From Alphaproteobacteria bacterium (GTDB taxonomy: Bacteria > Pseudomonadota > Alphaproteobacteria > SP197): a stretch of 64,000 nt of DNA. A model generated the notes under the pieces. The model saw nothing but the letters and a program-made list of their open reading frames with translations. It was not told the origin of the DNA and searched no databases. The stretch covers positions 5,280,001-5,344,000 of the forward strand of contig OZ245842.1 of NCBI GenBank assembly GCA_965228895.1, in the 5' to 3' direction. Of this stretch, positions 18,146 through 24,917 are shown one piece after another (positions within the stretch are counted from its first letter, which is position 1; every line of letters starts with the position of its first letter). A program made the translations under genes and the position numbers.

Positions 18146-21100
18146 TTATTCGGCTGCCGGCCTCAAGGCCATCTCGCGCAACGAGCGGTCGATCCAGAAG
18201 CGGGTCAGTTTTTCGTGCACGCCGTTTTGCGCGAGCCGCTGGGCCAAGCCAGGAAAGTCGACGCAGTCGAGCTGTTGATCCTGGTTGAAACAGGAGAAGA
18301 CGGGCGGCCGGCGTTCACCGGTCAGCGGATCGACATGGGGCTGCAGGCACTGGGCGCAGACCTCTTTCATCATGCATTGCATCGGACTGTTGATGCTGCC
18401 GATCGCGACGTGATTCTGCTTGAGCCAAGCCGAGAAGGCGCCGAAGCGCGCCGCCTTGACCGCCGCCATCATTTTGTCGGAGCCGATGGCGATGATGCGA
18501 TCGACCTCATTGAGGCTGATCGTGACGTCGCCCAGCTTGCCTTCCTGATAGGCGGTGACGGCATCGACGATGTTGCCGACAAAGCTGCGGTCCTGGGGCC
18601 GGCTTGGTTCGAAACCCGGTTGTTCGTCGCACGCCCAGACAATGGTGTCGGCGGCCTGCTCGATCTCCGCGACCTTGTAGCGGTCCTCGACCTTGCGGTA
18701 GCCGGCGACGTAGAGAACCTGATTCCCGGCTTCGCGCATGGCGCGACCGATGGAGAACAGGACGGCGTTGCCCAGGCCGCCGCCGAACAACAGCACCGTT
18801 TCGCCCGACGGGATCTCGGTCGGCGAACCGGTCGGACCCATGACGATCACCGGTTCGTCCTTGCGCAGGCTGGCCACCAGGTCGGACGATCCGCCCATCT
18901 CCAGAACGATCAGCGACAACAGGCCGCGCTCGGGATCGGTCCAGGCGCCCGTCATGGCGAGCGGTTCCATCGCCAACAACGTGTCGGCGGGCTTGCCGCT
19001 GAAACTCTCGTAGTTCTGCAGGCGGTAGAACTGGCCGGGCTTGAAGTTCACCGCCGCCTCGGGCGCATGAACGACAACCTCGACAATGGTTGGCGTCAAC
19101 CGCTCGACCCAGGCGACCGTTGCGACCAGACGCTTGGTGAGGCTCTCGAAGAAGGCCGACTCGCTTTTGCCAGCCGGGGGATCAAGGCGCTCGAGCATGC
19201 GTGTGATCACCGGATAGGCGCGCTTGGCGCCGCCCATCGCCTTGACCACATTGCCGGCGAAACTTGGATGCAGGTCGCCGTGGAAACTGACCGACCGGCC
19301 GTCCGGCGCGATGTGCATGAGGACGTCGGTCTCGGCCGGCTTGGCGACCTGTTCCGGGGCGACCGGCGCCGCGGATTCGTTGAAGGCCTGGAAGTACTTG
19401 CCGTCGAGCGACACGTGGCCGCTGTCTTCGCGCGCCAGAACCGTGTTCGGCTGGGTGCCGGCAGCGACCAATATCGCGCGCGCCGGCAACGTTACCTCGT
19501 TGCCGTCACTGTCGGCCGTGACCAGCGCGGCGGCGTGACCGTATTCATCGATGTCCACGCGTGTCGGCGACAGGCCGGGCGCAAAGCTGATGCCCTCCTC
19601 CAGCGCTAGCGCGACCTCTTCGTGGTTCAGCCGGTAGCTCGGTGAGTCCGTGATGTCGCGGCGATAGGCGATGGTGACGCCGCCCCAGGACTGCACGAGC
19701 TCGCGGATCCGGGCCTCGCGGCCTTCCGCAGCGGCGGCCTCGCGTTCGGCGCGGATGGCGCGGGCGTGAACCAGGAACTCATCGGCGATTCCGGCTTCTT
19801 CGGCGGTCCACGTCTCGCGCAGCTTGCCTTCCCGTCCGTCGGTGGCGAGCGCCTCGTAACGCGCCAGGAACTTTTCGACCTGCACGGGGTAATAGGCCAT
19901 CGACTCGGTCGCCGTATCGATCGCCGTCAGGCCACCGCCGATGACCACTGCCGGCAGGCGAAGCTGCAGGTTGGCAATCGACGGTTGACGGGCCGCGCCG
20001 GTCAGTTGCAGGGCCATCAGGAAGTCCGACGCCATGCGCACGCCGCGCGCCATCGCGTTCGGCATGTCGATATAGGTCGGCTTGCCGGCGCCGGCGGCGA
20101 GCGCGATGTGGTCGAACCCGGCGTCGAATGCGCTGTCGATGGTCAGCGTGCCGCCGAACCGGACGCCACCGAACATGCGGAAGCTATCGCGCCGCTCAAG
20201 CTGCAGGCGGATCAGCTTCAGGAAGTTTTTGTTCCAGCGCACGGTGATGCCGTATTCGGCGACGCCGCCGAAGCCCGCCATCACGCGGTCATCGAGATCT
20301 TCATAGAGTTGGTTGATGTCGCGGATAGGCCGGAACGCGTGACGGTTGCCCAAGAGGTCGATGCCGGAAATTTCCGGTTCCAACGGTTCGATCTTCAAGC
20401 CGTCGACACAGACCACCGTGTGGCCGTCGTTCATCAGGTGATGCGCCAGGTTGAAGCCGGCCGGCCCGACGCCGACCACCAGCACCTTGCGCCCGGTCTT
20501 TTCGCGCGGCACGGGCCGCTCGATGTTCAGCGGGTTCCAGCGCGACAACAGGCTGTAGATCTCGAAACCCCAGGACAGTTCCAGGATGTCCTTCAAGGTC
20601 CGGGTCTCGATCTGCGGAATGTCGACGGGTTCCTGCTTTTGATAGATGCAGGCCTTCATGCAGTCGTTGCAGATACGGTGGCCGGTCGCCGCGCATAGCG
20701 GGTTGTCGACCATGGCGACGGCGAGCGCCGCCAGCGACAGGCCGGAGGCTTTGAGAAGGTTCATCTCCGATACCTTCTCATCGAGCGGACAGCCGGCCAG
20801 CGTCACGCCGTGCGGGCTCTGCTTGAACGCGCCTTCCTTGTCGGTCAGCCCCGTCGAGCAGCTGTCCTTGCCCTGGTTATGGCACCAGATGCAGTAGTTG
20901 GCGTGATCGAGCGCGGCTTCCAGATCCATGCCGTGATCGGTCAGGGCAAACCCTTCGCGCCGGCGCAGGTCGTGCTCGGGCAGTCGCAGCATGGTGACGC
21001 CGCCGATCTCGATCGTCTCGACCGGCACCAGGTGATCGGGGTTCACCTTTTCCGGCAGATGGAACAGCGGGCTCTTGCGGTAGCGGTGCCGGCCTTCCTC

Positions 21101-21619
21101 CGACAACGCGGCCCAGGCGGCGAACCGGGCGGCGGCGGCAAGCGCCTCGGCGTTGACTTCCTCGTCGTCCAGCCATGCCATCACAGCGCGGGCGAAGGAA
21201 AGCTCGGTCAGCGTCTCGCCGATCAGCGCCTCGACCGCACGGCGCAGCGCGGCGCCGTCGGCCGCCGCCAGCTCGTCGGGCTTGAAGGCCTTGGCGGCGC
21301 GCCGGCGCACGAAGATGCGCTTGCATTCGTAGATCGGATTGAGCCGGTCGCGTTCGCCACGCAGGTTCGCCAGTTCGTCACCGACGCCGAACAGCTCGGT
21401 GACGAAGTCTTCGACCGTTGAACCCAGGTCGGTCAGCAGGTCGGAATGGGTCTTGGCGTCAAGACCGGCGGGTTCGCTGCGCGCCGCCATCAGGCGGTTG
21501 AACAGCTCGGCGTCTGTCTCCTTCAAGCGCTCGACAAAGTCGCGGTCGAGACGCACCAACCCATCACGATCGTAGAGGTCGTCGAAGGAAAACCCGAATG
21601 CCAGGGAAAGCTCGGTCAT
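18146..21619 (-). CDS. Large flavo-Fe-S oxidoreductase: GltD/NfnB-like domain fused to PyrK/NfnA-like domain (~1157 aa)
   Basis: N-part: CIWC..C..GCP and RICNDCMKAC Fe-S motifs, GVGPAG, IGGGLTAID. C-part: KPGQFYRL, MGPTG, GGGLGNA, SPMQCMMKEVCAQC..C [2Fe-2S] motif. ATG at 21619 after AAGGTG. Confidence 0.85.
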   Translation of the reverse strand: MTELSLAFGFSFDDLYDRDGLVRLDRDFVERLKETDAELFNRLMAARSEPAGLDAKTHSDLLTDLGSTVEDFVTELFGVGDELANLRGERDRLNPIYECKRIFVRRRAAKAFKPDELAAADGAALRRAVEALIGETLTELSFARAVMAWLDDEEVNAEALAAAARFAAWAALSEEGRHRYRKSPLFHLPEKVNPDHLVPVETIEIGGVTMLRLPEHDLRRREGFALTDHGMDLEAALDHANYCIWCHNQGKDSCSTGLTDKEGAFKQSPHGVTLAGCPLDEKVSEMNLLKASGLSLAALAVAMVDNPLCAATGHRICNDCMKACIYQKQEPVDIPQIETRTLKDILELSWGFEIYSLLSRWNPLNIERPVPREKTGRKVLVVGVGPAGFNLAHHLMNDGHTVVCVDGLKIEPLEPEISGIDLLGNRHAFRPIRDINQLYEDLDDRVMAGFGGVAEYGITVRWNKNFLKLIRLQLERRDSFRMFGGVRFGGTLTIDSAFDAGFDHIALAAGAGKPTYIDMPNAMARGVRMASDFLMALQLTGAARQPSIANLQLRLPAVVIGGGLTAIDTATESMAYYPVQVEKFLARYEALATDGREGKLRETWTAEEAGIADEFLVHARAIRAEREAAAAEGREARIRELVQSWGGVTIAYRRDITDSPSYRLNHEEVALALEEGISFAPGLSPTRVDIDEYGHAAALVTADSDGNEVTLPARAILVAAGTQPNTVLAREDSGHVSLDGKYFQAFNESAAPVAPEQVAKPAETDVLMHIAPDGRSVSFHGDLHPSFAGNVVKAMGGAKRAYPVITRMLERLDPPAGKSESAFFESLTKRLVATVAWVERLTPTIVEVVVHAPEAAVNFKPGQFYRLQNYESFSGKPADTLLAMEPLAMTGAWTDPERGLLSLIVLEMGGSSDLVASLRKDEPVIVMGPTGSPTEIPSGETVLLFGGGLGNAVLFSIGRAMREAGNQVLYVAGYRKVEDRYKVAEIEQAADTIVWACDEQPGFEPSRPQDRSFVGNIVDAVTAYQEGKLGDVTISLNEVDRIIAIGSDKMMAAVKAARFGAFSAWLKQNHVAIGSINSPMQCMMKEVCAQCLQPHVDPLTGERRPPVFSCFNQDQQLDCVDFPGLAQRLAQNGVHEKLTRFWIDRSLREMALRPAAE

Positions 21620-21684
21620 GGCCACCTTGGGGAACGGAACAATGGCGTCAGGCGTCGAAGGCGCCGGCGCGACGGCCTTATATA

Positions 21685-22458
21685 TCATCCAGCTTGCCGG
21701 GCAACGTCTGGAATGGGTGTATCGGCGGCGACCACCTTCGGTGATTCCATAAGGTGGATGCCGCACTCGGCCTTGTCGTTGCCGGCCCAGCGGCCGTCGC
21801 GGATATCGTCATCGCCGGTCACCGGACGGGTGCACGGCGCGCAGCCGATCGAGACATAGTGGCGTTCCAGCAAGGGGTGCTTGGGGAGCTTCTTGTCGGC
21901 GATGAACTTGAAGACATCGCGCCGGTCCCAATCGGCCAGCGGGTTGATCTTGACCCAGCCATCGGAGGCTTCGACCGGCGGCAGGCTTTGCCGGCCGCCG
22001 CCATGGAAACGCTTTCGTCCGGTAACCCAGGCGGCATAGGGGGTCAGCGCCTGAACCATCGGCGTCACCTTGCGCAGGAAACAGCAGGCGTCGGGATTGT
22101 CGCGCCACAGGGTGCCGCCGGGATCGGTCGCCGCGATATCGACGATGTCGGGACCGGCGGAGCGTACGCCGGTCAGTCCCAGGTGAGCGATCACGTGGTC
22201 GCGGTAGGCAAGAGTCTCCGGGAACAGCTGGCCGGTATCCAGGAAGATCACCGGGATGGCCGGGTCGATCTCGGCGGCGAGCGCCAGGAGCGCGACCGCC
22301 TCGGCGCCAAAGGACGAGGCAACGGCGATCTCGCCGGCGAACGGGCCCTCCACCGCGGCTTGCAACAGGTCGCGCCCCGTCAGATGACCGTGGTCCAGGG
22401 CGAACTCGGCGGCCCGCCGTTTCGCGCGGTCGCGGCGTTGCTGGCGCCAGTCGCTCAT
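21685..22458 (-). CDS. cysH: APS/PAPS reductase CysH (Fe-S, APS-reductase type motifs)
   Basis: SSFG, FLDTG, CC.LRK, KINPL, SIGCAPCT, GRW, ECGIH; start overlaps the upstream stop (ATGA). Confidence 0.93.
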   Translation of the reverse strand: MSDWRQQRRDRAKRRAAEFALDHGHLTGRDLLQAAVEGPFAGEIAVASSFGAEAVALLALAAEIDPAIPVIFLDTGQLFPETLAYRDHVIAHLGLTGVRSAGPDIVDIAATDPGGTLWRDNPDACCFLRKVTPMVQALTPYAAWVTGRKRFHGGGRQSLPPVEASDGWVKINPLADWDRRDVFKFIADKKLPKHPLLERHYVSIGCAPCTRPVTGDDDIRDGRWAGNDKAECGIHLMESPKVVAADTPIPDVARQAG

Positions 22459-23015
22459 CCCAGCCATCCCTGTTCGTCGATGTACCGGTCGGTCCGGCGT
22501 TTGACCGCCGCCATGTCGGCGCCGTCGGCGCGCCAGTCGTTCCTGGCCTCAGCCAGTTCGTTGATCCGTCCGGCCCATTCCGGCCCGAACAGCCGCTCGA
22601 CATAACGGCGCAACGAGCCCGCAAGGCCGGGCGCACGGCCGGCGGTCGAGATGGTCAGTGTCAAATCACCGCGCCGAACCAGGGCGGGCAGGTGAAAGTC
22701 GCAATATGGTTTGCGGTCCTCGACGTTGACCAGGACCTTTAGTGCGCGGCAGGCGTCGGCTATCGGCCCCGCAACGGTGTCGCTTAGACCGGCGACAAAC
22801 ACCACGTCGGCCTCCGCGAGGTCGCGGGTCTCGGGCAGGCGCGCCACCAACCGGTCGCTGGCCACCGCCTCCAGGGCGTCGCCCGTCCGGTCGGAATAGA
22901 CCGTGATATGGCGGGCGCCGGCGTTCTCGCAGAACTTGAGCTTGCGCGCGGCGGCCGCGCCACGGCCGACCACCGCGATCTTCAGGCGTGTCACGTCGAG
23001 CTGAACGGGCAACAT
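22455..23015 (-). CDS. Precorrin-2 dehydrogenase / sirohydrochlorin ferrochelatase (CysG N-terminal, SirC/Met8-like)
   Basis: LPVQL, VVGRGAAAARKL, LVNVED...CDFHLPALVRRGDLTLTISTAGRAPGLA; no methyltransferase domain. Confidence 0.88.
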   Translation of the reverse strand: MLPVQLDVTRLKIAVVGRGAAAARKLKFCENAGARHITVYSDRTGDALEAVASDRLVARLPETRDLAEADVVFVAGLSDTVAGPIADACRALKVLVNVEDRKPYCDFHLPALVRRGDLTLTISTAGRAPGLAGSLRRYVERLFGPEWAGRINELAEARNDWRADGADMAAVKRRTDRYIDEQGWLG

Positions 23016-23199
23016 ATCAAGCCACTCCCGCAAGACGGCGCGCCAATGCCAGGTGGCAGGCAAACCGGCGTTGACGCAGGGACAAGCCAGATTTGGGTGT
23101 CTGGGGGCAGGTCAGGGACATCACCATGGTCGGTCTCCGCAGATCCGTGTCGTTCGTGGCCGGATCTTCTGCTTGCGGGTCGCCGACGGTGGCGCGGGC

Positions 23200-23232
23200 A
23201 AAAAAATGCCGCCCTCTCAAAGTGATGGGCGG
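23200..23232 (-). terminator. Riboswitch expression-platform terminator
   Basis: Minus strand CCGCCCATCA-CTT-TGAGAGGGCGG followed by CA and T7. Confidence 0.8.
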
Positions 23233-23237
23233 TCTGC

Positions 23238-23293
23238 CCACCGCTTTAGCCGTATTTCTAGAGCGCCCGCAAGCTGATGATCAAATCGGCGCT
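23238..23293 (-). ncRNA. SAM-II (SAM_alpha-like) riboswitch aptamer
   Basis: Minus strand AGCGCC-GATTTGA-TCATCAGC-TTGC-G-GGCGCT-CTAGAAATACG-GCTAAA-GCGGTGG: P1 AGCGCC/GGCGCT, conserved GAUUU, UUGC and GCUAAA, pseudoknot pairing possible; upstream of sulfur-assimilation genes. Confidence 0.85.
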
Positions 23294-23421
23294 ATGCACA
23301 CGAATATGCGTGCCTGGCGGCGTGGCCGCAAACGAGAAATGCTAGGGCGATTGATAAGTATTTCTAAGGATAAGCTCTGGGCAGGGTCAACGTCCATGGG
23401 GCGCCAGGCCAACCGTATGCG

Positions 23422-23453
23422 GCTCCCTCGGAGAATGATCTCCCCGAGGGAGC
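23422..23453 (-). terminator. Stem-loop downstream of ALDH
   Basis: GCTCCCTCGG..CCGAGGGAGC inverted repeat ~30 bp past the ALDH stop; no clear U-tract. Confidence 0.4.
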
Positions 23454-23483
23454 GCACGTGGCACGAACAGGGTGCCGTGCAGA

Positions 23484-24917
23484 CTACTGCCAGCCGCTGA
23501 CCGACTTCACCTCGAGAAAGTCCTCAAGGCCCCAGACGCCGCCTTCGCGACCGTTACCGGATTGGCGGTAGCCGCCGAACGGTGAACCGGCTCCGCCCGA
23601 ATGGCCGTTGATCTCCACCATGCCGCTGCGCAGCACACGGGCGGTGCGGCGCGCCTTGTCCAGATCCTGGGTCTGAACATAGTTGGTCAGACCATAGGCC
23701 GTGTCGTTGGCCAATTCGATGGCCTCATCCTCGCTGTCGAACGGCGTGATCGCGAGCACCGGGCCAAAGATCTCCTCGCGCCAGATCGTCATGTCCTGGT
23801 CGACATCGGCGAAAACGGTCGGGCGGGCGAACCAGCCTCGGTTCAACCCGTCAGGTCGGCCGGTGCCGCCGGCCACCAGCCGCGCGCCTTCGTCGATGCC
23901 TTTTTGAATCAGACCCTGGATCTTGTCCCATTGCACTTCCGAGACAACGGGGCCTATCTGGCTTCCATCGATGTCGGCGGCGGCGACCTCGGTCTGCTGG
24001 GCGACTGACTGCGCCGTCTCGACCGCCTTGTCGTAGAGCGACCGCTCCACCAGCATGCGCGTCGGTGCGTTGCAGGATTGGCCGGAGTTGTTGAAGCAAT
24101 GGCGCACGCCACGCGTCACGGCCTTGTCGTCCGCATCGGCAAAGATGATGTTCGCGCCTTTGCCGCCCAGTTCGAGCGTCACGCGCTTGATCGTGTCGGC
24201 GGCGTTCTTGGTGATGGCGCGGCCGGCGCGGGTGGACCCGGTGAAGCTGACCATGTCGACATCGGGATGGACGGAAAGCTGGCTGCCCACGCCCGGGCCA
24301 TCGCCATTGACCAGATTGAAGACACCTGCGGGTATGTCGGCGGCATCGACCATCTCGGCAAACAGGTAGGACGAGAGCGGAGCCACCTCGGACGGCTTCA
24401 AAACGACCGTGCAACCCGCCGCGAGCGCCGGCGCGACCTTGAGAACGACCTGGTTCATCGGCCAGTTCCATGGCGTGATCAGCGCACAGACGCCGATCGG
24501 TTCCATGAGGATGCGATCGCCGGGCGCGTGATCGCCCAGCATGCGGTCGAATTGAAAGCTCTTAAGCGTCTCGATCGCGTCTTTCAAATGACCGATGCCG
24601 GCGCCAACCTGGGCGGTGCGCGCCAAGGCGATGGGCGCTCCCATTTCCTGGCTGATCGCCTGGGCCATGTCCTCCGCACGCGCCTTGTAGGCCGCGAGCA
24701 ACCGCTCCAGCGCGGCCACCCGCTCTTCCTTGGGACATTGCGCCCATGCGGGAAGGGCGGCCTTTGCCGCGGCGACAGCCATGTTCGTATCGGCTTCACC
24801 GCCTAGCGAGATCGTCGCGAACGGTTCCTCGGTCGAGGGATTCAACACGGTCAGGTCCTGACCCTCGATTGGCGCAACCCAGGCGCCATTGATGTAAAAC
24901 TCGCGTGCGTCCTGCAT
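23484..24917 (-). CDS. NAD(P)-dependent aldehyde dehydrogenase
   Basis: ITPWNWP, LKPSE, SFTGST, LELGGK, NSGQSC, EEIFGPV, PFGGYRQSGNGREGG; ATG 24917 after GGAGAG. Confidence 0.95.
   Translation of the reverse strand: MQDAREFYINGAWVAPIEGQDLTVLNPSTEEPFATISLGGEADTNMAVAAAKAALPAWAQCPKEERVAALERLLAAYKARAEDMAQAISQEMGAPIALARTAQVGAGIGHLKDAIETLKSFQFDRMLGDHAPGDRILMEPIGVCALITPWNWPMNQVVLKVAPALAAGCTVVLKPSEVAPLSSYLFAEMVDAADIPAGVFNLVNGDGPGVGSQLSVHPDVDMVSFTGSTRAGRAITKNAADTIKRVTLELGGKGANIIFADADDKAVTRGVRHCFNNSGQSCNAPTRMLVERSLYDKAVETAQSVAQQTEVAAADIDGSQIGPVVSEVQWDKIQGLIQKGIDEGARLVAGGTGRPDGLNRGWFARPTVFADVDQDMTIWREEIFGPVLAITPFDSEDEAIELANDTAYGLTNYVQTQDLDKARRTARVLRSGMVEINGHSGGAGSPFGGYRQSGNGREGGVWGLEDFLEVKSVSGWQ

Follow-up and report, generated by a model that had tools for sequence, protein, structure and literature searches.

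The minus strand of a 64,000-nucleotide stretch of DNA from an Alphaproteobacteria bacterium (assembly GCA_965228895.1, contig OZ245842.1, positions 5,280,001-5,344,000; hereafter the window, with all coordinates counted within it) carries at 23293-23200 a leader that is very probably a SAM-II riboswitch (SAM, S-adenosylmethionine) acting as a transcriptional OFF switch for an operon composed of a small open reading frame (ORF), a sirC-like gene, cysH and a flavoprotein gene. The aptamer lies in the 5' leader of these sulfur-metabolism genes, on the same strand, and matches the SAM-II model; the alternative helices of the leader are mutually exclusive, and the leader is conserved before the same operon in related genomes. 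The predicted structures suggest that transcription terminates at the end of the leader and that it does so in a SAM-dependent manner.

A search with the Rfam SAM-II covariance model had been set beforehand as a check in an earlier interpretation of this DNA made from the sequence alone (the sequence-only reading). It returned a match to RF00521 (SAM_alpha) on the minus strand at 23225-23302, spanning the full model (positions 1-79), with 31.5 bits and an E-value of 3e-5 for the 601 bases searched (22950-23550); the E-value for this score is 6.4e-5 when the whole genome is searched. The class was recovered at a score below the gathering cut-off of 36 bits, which is an operational threshold of a model that leaves the pseudoknot unscored. 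The P1 helix AGCGCC/GGCGCT that had been proposed for the minus strand is present, with all six pairs formed between 23293-23288 and 23267-23262. The P1 loop, which is one position short relative to the model, contains the L1 motif GAUUUG (23287-23282) and GCUUGC (23274-23269), and a linker separates it from the tail GCUAAAGCGGUGGGC (23250-23236), within which the 3' strand of the pseudoknot is situated. Nine pairs with one bulge are formed between 23280-23271 and 23246-23238, in agreement with the pseudoknot strands that had been named as 23280-23269 and 23250-23238. GCUU (23274-23271) pairs with AAGC (23246-23243), A23275 is bulged, and in the distal part UCAUC (23280-23276) pairs with GGUGG (23242-23238) through two G-U pairs among others. 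Each of the core motifs (GAUUUG, GCUUGC and GCUAAAG) is aligned with upper-case consensus positions of RF00521. Judged by sequence and pairing, the segment 23293-23236 is a sub-threshold but ordinary member of a known riboswitch class, and would be expected to bind SAM. As a scan at curated cut-offs overlooks this copy, similar leaders are likely to be under-annotated.

The tail of the aptamer is also one arm of a second helix, in which AAAGCGGUGGGC (23247-23236) pairs with GCCCAUCACUUU (23230-23219) at 11 of 12 positions, one pair being G-U and the remaining position a C-A mismatch, exactly as the sequence-only reading had claimed. The core of this antiterminator is formed by 23242-23236 and 23230-23224, which enclose a five-nucleotide loop, AGACC. 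The terminator that was said to share its left arm with this helix and to end in T7 was also found; its stem consists of CCGCCC (23232-23227) and GGGCGG (23214-23209) with an inner three-pair stem (23225-23223 with 23219-23217), and the dinucleotide CA precedes a U7 run at 23206-23200. The antiterminator overlaps the pseudoknot by nine nucleotides (23246-23238) and the terminator by four (23230-23227), and the helices are therefore mutually exclusive. Folding of this platform was stopped at the U-run, longer folds being dominated by pairings that are impossible at the moment of the termination decision. The predicted fold of 23250-23200 is the antiterminator when the tail is free, and switches to the terminator once its ten pseudoknot nucleotides are blocked; with the tail blocked, the terminator is likewise predicted in all 12 of the platforms, among the leaders described below, that carry a U-run of at least four.

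In the mechanism proposed here, transcription would start a few bases ahead of P1, from a putative promoter at 23331-23303. Where SAM is scarce, the free tail would pair with 23230-23219 as soon as the latter is made, the left arm of the terminator would be held and the polymerase would read through. Where SAM is bound, the tail would be locked in an H-type pseudoknot (23280-23271 with 23246-23238), 23232-23227 would be free to pair with 23214-23209 and transcription would end at the U7 run. The proposition that binding of SAM frees the terminator and turns transcription off, already made in the sequence-only reading, gains support from the covariance-model match, from the conserved leaders of related genomes and from folding under constraint.

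The distribution of the leader was examined in the genomes related to the window. A protein search with SirC in 61 genomes gave a match in 23, and an Rfam scan of 18 SirC loci found SAM_alpha at the equivalent upstream position in 11, all of them within the taxonomic family of the window, with scores of 36.6, 36.0 and 35.3 down to 23.5, two of which reach the cut-off; the seven of the 18 scanned loci without a SAM_alpha match come without exception from other families. When the 33 genomes of the family were all searched at the DNA level, the leader was detected in 13, precisely those with a SirC orthologue of at least 46% identity. A fourteenth genome (G008) has only a SirC-like match of 32% identity, located at a contig start, with its upstream region off the contig. 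In the 13 genomes the leader precedes the small ORF, the sirC-like gene, usually cysH, and then a large ORF encoding a 1206-residue fusion protein; one of these loci (G003) lies at a contig end. In the alignment of the 13 leaders, expressed as the percentage of paired cells, P1 reaches 98.7%, the pseudoknot (P2) 90.6%, the terminator 89.7% and the seven-pair antiterminator core 97.8%, as compared with 33-59% for the same helices slid by one to three columns. The core motifs show no variation among the 13 leaders, nor among 14 aptamers taken from four contexts; the alignment of the latter, drawn from different contexts, was excluded from the pair counts, one subtype being one column off in P1. 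One compensatory change, G-C to A-U, is found in the antiterminator of G014, and the changed U still pairs in the terminator, as U-G.

Several results weigh against this reading and have to be set beside the evidence given above. The aptamer scores below the curated threshold, and an Rfam scan of the whole 64-kb window at gathering cut-offs returned no matches. The stability of the 111 nucleotides at 23300-23190 is unremarkable (z -0.94; an equally good fold is reached by 28 of 200 shuffles), and P1 and the pseudoknot are not recovered in the unconstrained minimum-free-energy fold of this stretch, although both measures are uninformative because the switch contains a pseudoknot. With the tail free, the minimum is the antiterminator in six and the terminator in six of the 12 platforms with a U-run, and the thirteenth leader (G020) lacks a U-run altogether. 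The leaders are nearly invariant and covariation is almost absent, the variation being too small for a test: in P1, P2 and the terminator no pair is changed on both sides and 315 of 500 shuffles reach the observed pairing, while the single pair changed on both sides in the antiterminator is equalled in 28 of 500 shuffles. In principle, constraint on the sequence itself might suffice to account for the conservation. Since the terminator wins with a free tail in half of the platforms, the switch must be kinetic, and equilibrium folding taken alone would be no proof of it. As the 3' arm of the antiterminator is made before that of the terminator, the antiterminator has the advantage during synthesis unless the tail is already held, which is the usual kinetic scheme.

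The modest score also bears on a different explanation, according to which the element is a decayed or re-purposed look-alike of SAM-II that no longer binds SAM or binds a related ligand, its conservation being due to some other role, for instance as a protein site or as a short, terminated small RNA that acts in trans. This appears improbable. The shortfall from 36 bits, the shortened P1 loop and a C-U mismatch at pseudoknot columns 24-62 in 11 of the 13 leaders, where an A-U pair occurs only in the genus of the window, are in its favour, as are aptamers, reportedly on record, that are closely related to SAM aptamers and recognise other ligands. Against it, none of the aligned core motifs is damaged and none varies among the 13 leaders, two orthologous copies attain the cut-off, an aptamer of nearly identical type stands in the metY leader of the same genome, and the downstream genes belong to the pathway leading from sulfur to methionine and SAM.

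The other aptamers of the genome were identified by a search with RF00521, which gave five matches at E-values of 1 or below. The best (77.6 bits) is located before metZ, two in tandem (34.3 and 24.5 bits) precede osmC-metY, the sirC leader comes next in the series with the score given above, and the fifth match is weak (17.8 bits). The matches before metZ and osmC-metY indicate that this genome uses SAM-II. The sirC-leader aptamer closely resembles the first osmC-metY aptamer; P1 of the metZ aptamer is fully different in sequence and yet complementary, and the distal half of the pseudoknot, read by eye and uncounted, differs and yet stays complementary in the metZ copy and in those at two loci of other genomes (L046 and L099). 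As MetZ and MetY are sulfide-using homocysteine synthases, control of the sirC operon by the preferred OFF switch would mean that sulfide supply, too, is throttled by the SAM signal.

A plus-strand small RNA of the Burkholderia Bp2_Cand287 type (RF02424) was considered as well, a match to this family being found at 23201-23325 on the plus strand (23.4 bits, E-value 0.0038). Such an RNA is hardly credible here, as the family has a cut-off of 70 bits, far above this score, the consensus segments in the alignment correspond to the SAM-II core motifs in reverse complement, weak antisense matches of the same kind recur at other SAM-II leaders (L007, L011, L020 and L002), and the genes and the terminator are all on the minus strand. 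The candidate was rejected as the antisense image of SAM-II. Judged by its consensus, the RF02424 family (Bp2_Cand287_SIPHT) itself has the look of a SAM-II leader read in antisense.

Between the terminator and the first enzyme gene lies a conserved box, CCCGCAAGC, situated about 20 nucleotides after the U-run and nearly invariant inside an otherwise variable stretch. It is relevant to a further explanation, in which the aptamer is genuine and the hairpin with its U7 run is a constitutive attenuator, or the main control by SAM is translational and exerted through the box; this is considered unlikely. The six relatives whose equilibrium fold is the terminator, whether the tail is free or blocked, speak for an attenuator. 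However, the tail of the pseudoknot is the 5' arm of the very hairpin that occludes the left arm of the terminator, and this overlap is conserved in 12 of the 13 leaders, which makes SAM-independent termination hard to reconcile with the data. For translational control, the box has its complement in the aptamer core GCUUGCGGG (23274-23266) and, in part, also in UGCGG immediately 5' of the Shine-Dalgarno (SD) sequence of the small ORF. The nine pairs with the aptamer are formed in 94.9% of the cells in the 13 leaders, as compared with 35-46% in slid controls, and the long-range helix between the two is used in the full-length folds of most leaders. In local folds the box pairs with (C)CUGCGG running into the GGAG of the SD in all five leaders of genera g1 and g2, and in G003, where G is replaced by A in the box, a C-to-U change in the SD-proximal partner keeps the pair, and a mismatch with the aptamer results. 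Blocking of the aptamer lowers the predicted unpaired probability of the SD in nine of the 13 leaders, from 0.51 to 0.34 in the window. These changes in accessibility are small, though, and absent in the other four leaders, and within the 13 leaders the variation in the box helices is too small for a covariation test. Genus g4 shows another arrangement, a hairpin that holds the SD and has a 5' arm overlapping with a copy of the 3' strand of P1.

The preferred transcriptional switch and the box need not be alternatives, and it is put forward tentatively that one SAM-II aptamer drives two platforms in series, the terminator first and then a relay from the aptamer core through the box to the SD that dampens translation. 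In the absence of ligand, the box would pair with the aptamer core, the SD of the small ORF would stay free, and the small ORF would be translated and translationally coupled to sirC. On binding of SAM, the aptamer core would be locked, and the box would pair with UGCGG beside the SD and dampen translation. The effects predicted from the folds are modest. If this is correct, the leader would achieve with one aptamer the 'bi-mechanism' control hitherto described for tandem SAM riboswitches, and the small ORF and the anti-aptamer box provide a testable case of one aptamer feeding two layers of control.

Doublets of the tandem kind (SAM-II/SAM-II and SAM-II/SAM-V) are described as having a terminator with the first SAM-II aptamer and a second layer at the ribosome-binding site (Sherlock 2022, PMC9481103). 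The osmC-metY leader of the same genome (G000:C1:2137297-2137497, minus strand; locus L002, about 1379-1579) is such a doublet, its first aptamer being followed by a terminator and its second adjoining the SD, and a similar SAM-II doublet stands ahead of cysH in an alphaproteobacterial metagenome-assembled genome (L048). Unlike these, the sirC leader has one aptamer, and any second layer must reuse it through the downstream box. A precedent, also for translational control, is the metA leader of Sinorhizobium meliloti, in which one SAM-II aptamer controlling translation at a distant SD is followed by a terminator in the leader (Scheuer 2022, PMC9373788). Its authors report that they could predict no antiterminator driven by SAM-II for that terminator (PMC9373788), whereas here the antiterminator shares a strand with the pseudoknot.

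The terminator mechanism is not new and belongs to the textbook picture of the SAM-II class. Many representatives were described with putative intrinsic terminators as OFF switches (Corbino 2005, PMC1273637), terminators are presented as a common SAM-II platform in alpha- and betaproteobacteria (PMC1273637, PMC2258182, PMC9373788), and in S. meliloti a small RNA (RZ) was detected whose size is that of the product expected if transcription ends at the metZ riboswitch (Scheuer 2022, PMC9373788). The sequence-only reading had regarded transcriptional control of siroheme and adenylyl-sulfate (APS) reductase genes as a less familiar use of SAM-II; this holds for the gene context, and does not hold for termination, going by what these sources describe (PMC1273637, PMC9373788). 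The leader resembles the terminator-type SAM-II riboswitches of Agrobacterium tumefaciens metA and S. meliloti metZ in having P1, an H-type pseudoknot and the GAUUUG, GCUUGC and GCUAAAG core, in the meeting of the 3' pseudoknot strand with the terminator and the OFF logic, and in its alphaproteobacterial host and a promoter just ahead of P1, as these are described there (PMC1273637, PMC2258182, PMC9373788). It differs from them in its genes, which are sirC-like, cysH and flavoprotein genes as against metA, metX, metY and metZ, in its sub-cut-off score, and in the small ORF, probably translated, and the anti-aptamer box between the terminator and the first enzyme gene.

The gene context, namely siroheme synthesis and the reduction of APS or phosphoadenylyl sulfate (PAPS), is the less familiar and less documented part. 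A comparative study describes the SAM-II regulon as metY, hom, metA, metX, metC and metW, with no cys gene among them (Leyn 2014, PMC4239095). A link of SAM-II to cysH, cysG, siroheme, APS, PAPS or sulfite reductase, or sulfate assimilation was not found in the literature searched, although the supplementary regulon tables of PMC4239095 could list such genes; the items retrieved were a Pelagibacter paper that lists cysH merely as absent and a plant review, and neither ties SAM-II to siroheme or sulfate-reduction genes. A comparable arrangement is reported for Bacillus methanolicus, in which a SAM-I (S-box) leader precedes cysH and siroheme-synthesis genes, in the order (SAM)-cysH-sat-cysC-nirA-...-cobA-sirB1-ytnM (PMC4342826). 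SAM-I has a four-way junction, unlike the SAM-II pseudoknot present here, and the hosts belong to different phyla; the likeness is one of convergent regulon logic and not of homology. In an alphaproteobacterial family, the leader very probably takes the SAM-II regulon further upstream, to sulfide supply through APS/PAPS reduction and siroheme, a logic that the Firmicutes reach through the unrelated SAM-I fold. The features of the leader and the operon are collected in Table 1.

Table 1. Features of the sirC leader and the operon behind it (coordinates within the window)
Feature	Coordinates	Strand	Evidence or detail
Putative sigma-70-type promoter	23303..23331	-	read from sequence; similar hexamers in relatives
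SAM-II aptamer, Rfam RF00521 (SAM_alpha)	23236..23293	-	covariance-model match; pairing conserved in 13 leaders
Antiterminator hairpin (predicted)	23219..23247	-	11/12 pairs, -13.8 kcal/mol
Intrinsic terminator (predicted)	23200..23232	-	-13.5 kcal/mol, then CA + U7
Conserved box (function inferred)	23171..23179	-	complementarity and near-invariance in 13 leaders
Shine-Dalgarno GGAG and 36-codon upstream ORF	23017..23138	-	SD 23138-23135, ATG 23127, stop TGA 23019-23017
sirC-like gene, 186 aa	22455..23015	-	PF13241 3.1e-18; TIGR01470 cysG_Nterm 78.5 bits, above cut-off 62.3
cysH, 260 aa, phosphoadenylyl-sulfate / adenylyl-sulfate reductase	21685..22467	-	PF01507 2.1e-40; NF002537 251.7 bits, above cut-off 154
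Large ORF, 1206 aa as listed	18146..21766	-	PF07992; NF005128 743.6 bits, below cut-off 1072

The operon opens with the small ORF (23127-23017), which matches no Pfam family and whose stop lies one base ahead of the ATG of sirC. A small ORF with a related C-terminus (RRLAxRLALARRIAGW-like) is present in nine of the 13 leaders, where it ends one base before the sirC start or overlaps it. In its last 17 codons five synonymous and no non-synonymous changes separate G010 from G007, and seven and two, respectively, separate G003 from G007; in more distant genome pairs the two kinds of change are mixed. This pattern of substitutions suggests that the small ORF is probably translated. The sirC-like product corresponds to the N-terminal domain of siroheme synthase, of the precorrin-2 dehydrogenase / ferrochelatase type. 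The large ORF encodes a fusion of a GltD-like pyridine-nucleotide oxidoreductase with a PyrK-like FAD/NAD domain, its true start being probably later than listed, and a gene for a flavodoxin-like NAD(P)H oxidoreductase follows it on the same strand. In all 12 loci of the family examined by tblastn, the large ORF follows sirC or sirC-cysH; the order sirC-cysH-large ORF is kept in nine of these 12 loci, which do not include the window, and in G005, G012 and G020 the large ORF comes directly after sirC. It was also observed to keep its place where cysH is missing between the two. The constant partnership of the leader with this flavoprotein makes the protein a candidate player in sulfite or siroheme metabolism and a candidate electron-transfer partner in these pathways.

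The association of SAM-II with cysH and siroheme genes is not unique to the family of the window. A pattern scan of species-representative genomes yielded at least 80 loci with 81 matches, and the longest downstream ORFs, 79 in number, were assigned by Pfam. Among the matches listed, these ORFs comprise 15 Cys/Met pyridoxal-phosphate enzymes, 14 metX-type hydrolases, six S-methyltransferases, six ATP-binding-cassette ATPases, five NMT1-type binding proteins, three PAPS_reduct and two CysG-type proteins, two MetQ-type lipoproteins, two amino-acid kinases and one HEAT protein, with no family for 23. One further locus with cysH was recognised by tblastn, so that six of the 80 SAM-II loci of other lineages among the matches listed are linked to cysH or cysG, and the aptamers at four of these six score above the Rfam cut-off. 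The NMT1-type periplasmic binding proteins, which are of the sulfonate/taurine-transporter kind, are preceded by SAM-II at L039, L042, L060, L090 and L105, among the matches listed, and represent another sulfur-acquisition context for SAM-II.

Upstream of the leader, an aldehyde dehydrogenase gene ends at 23484. A consensus promoter scanner applied to 22800-23700 predicted no promoters, since its strict hexamers exclude a weak -35, and a simple terminator scanner applied to the same region predicted no sites, because its loop limit is 3-8 nucleotides and the stem is interrupted. The putative promoter (Table 1) consists of a -35 element TTGCGG (23331-23326), a 17-nucleotide spacer and a -10 element CATATT (23308-23303), and in most of the 13 leaders a CAT(A/C)TT-like -10 and a CGTTTGC -35 are found at the same spacing from P1 as here. 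Transcription would start a few nucleotides ahead of P1, at about 23297-23295, and a promoter position just ahead of P1 has been reported for SAM-II leaders (Corbino 2005, PMC1273637). A conserved stretch at about 23368-23326 on the minus strand, CTAG ... ATTTCTCGTTTGC, with the inverted symmetry AGAAAT / ATTTCT, overlaps and precedes the putative -35 and recurs in most of the 13 leaders. As a candidate transcription-factor operator, it may place the operon under protein control besides the riboswitch.

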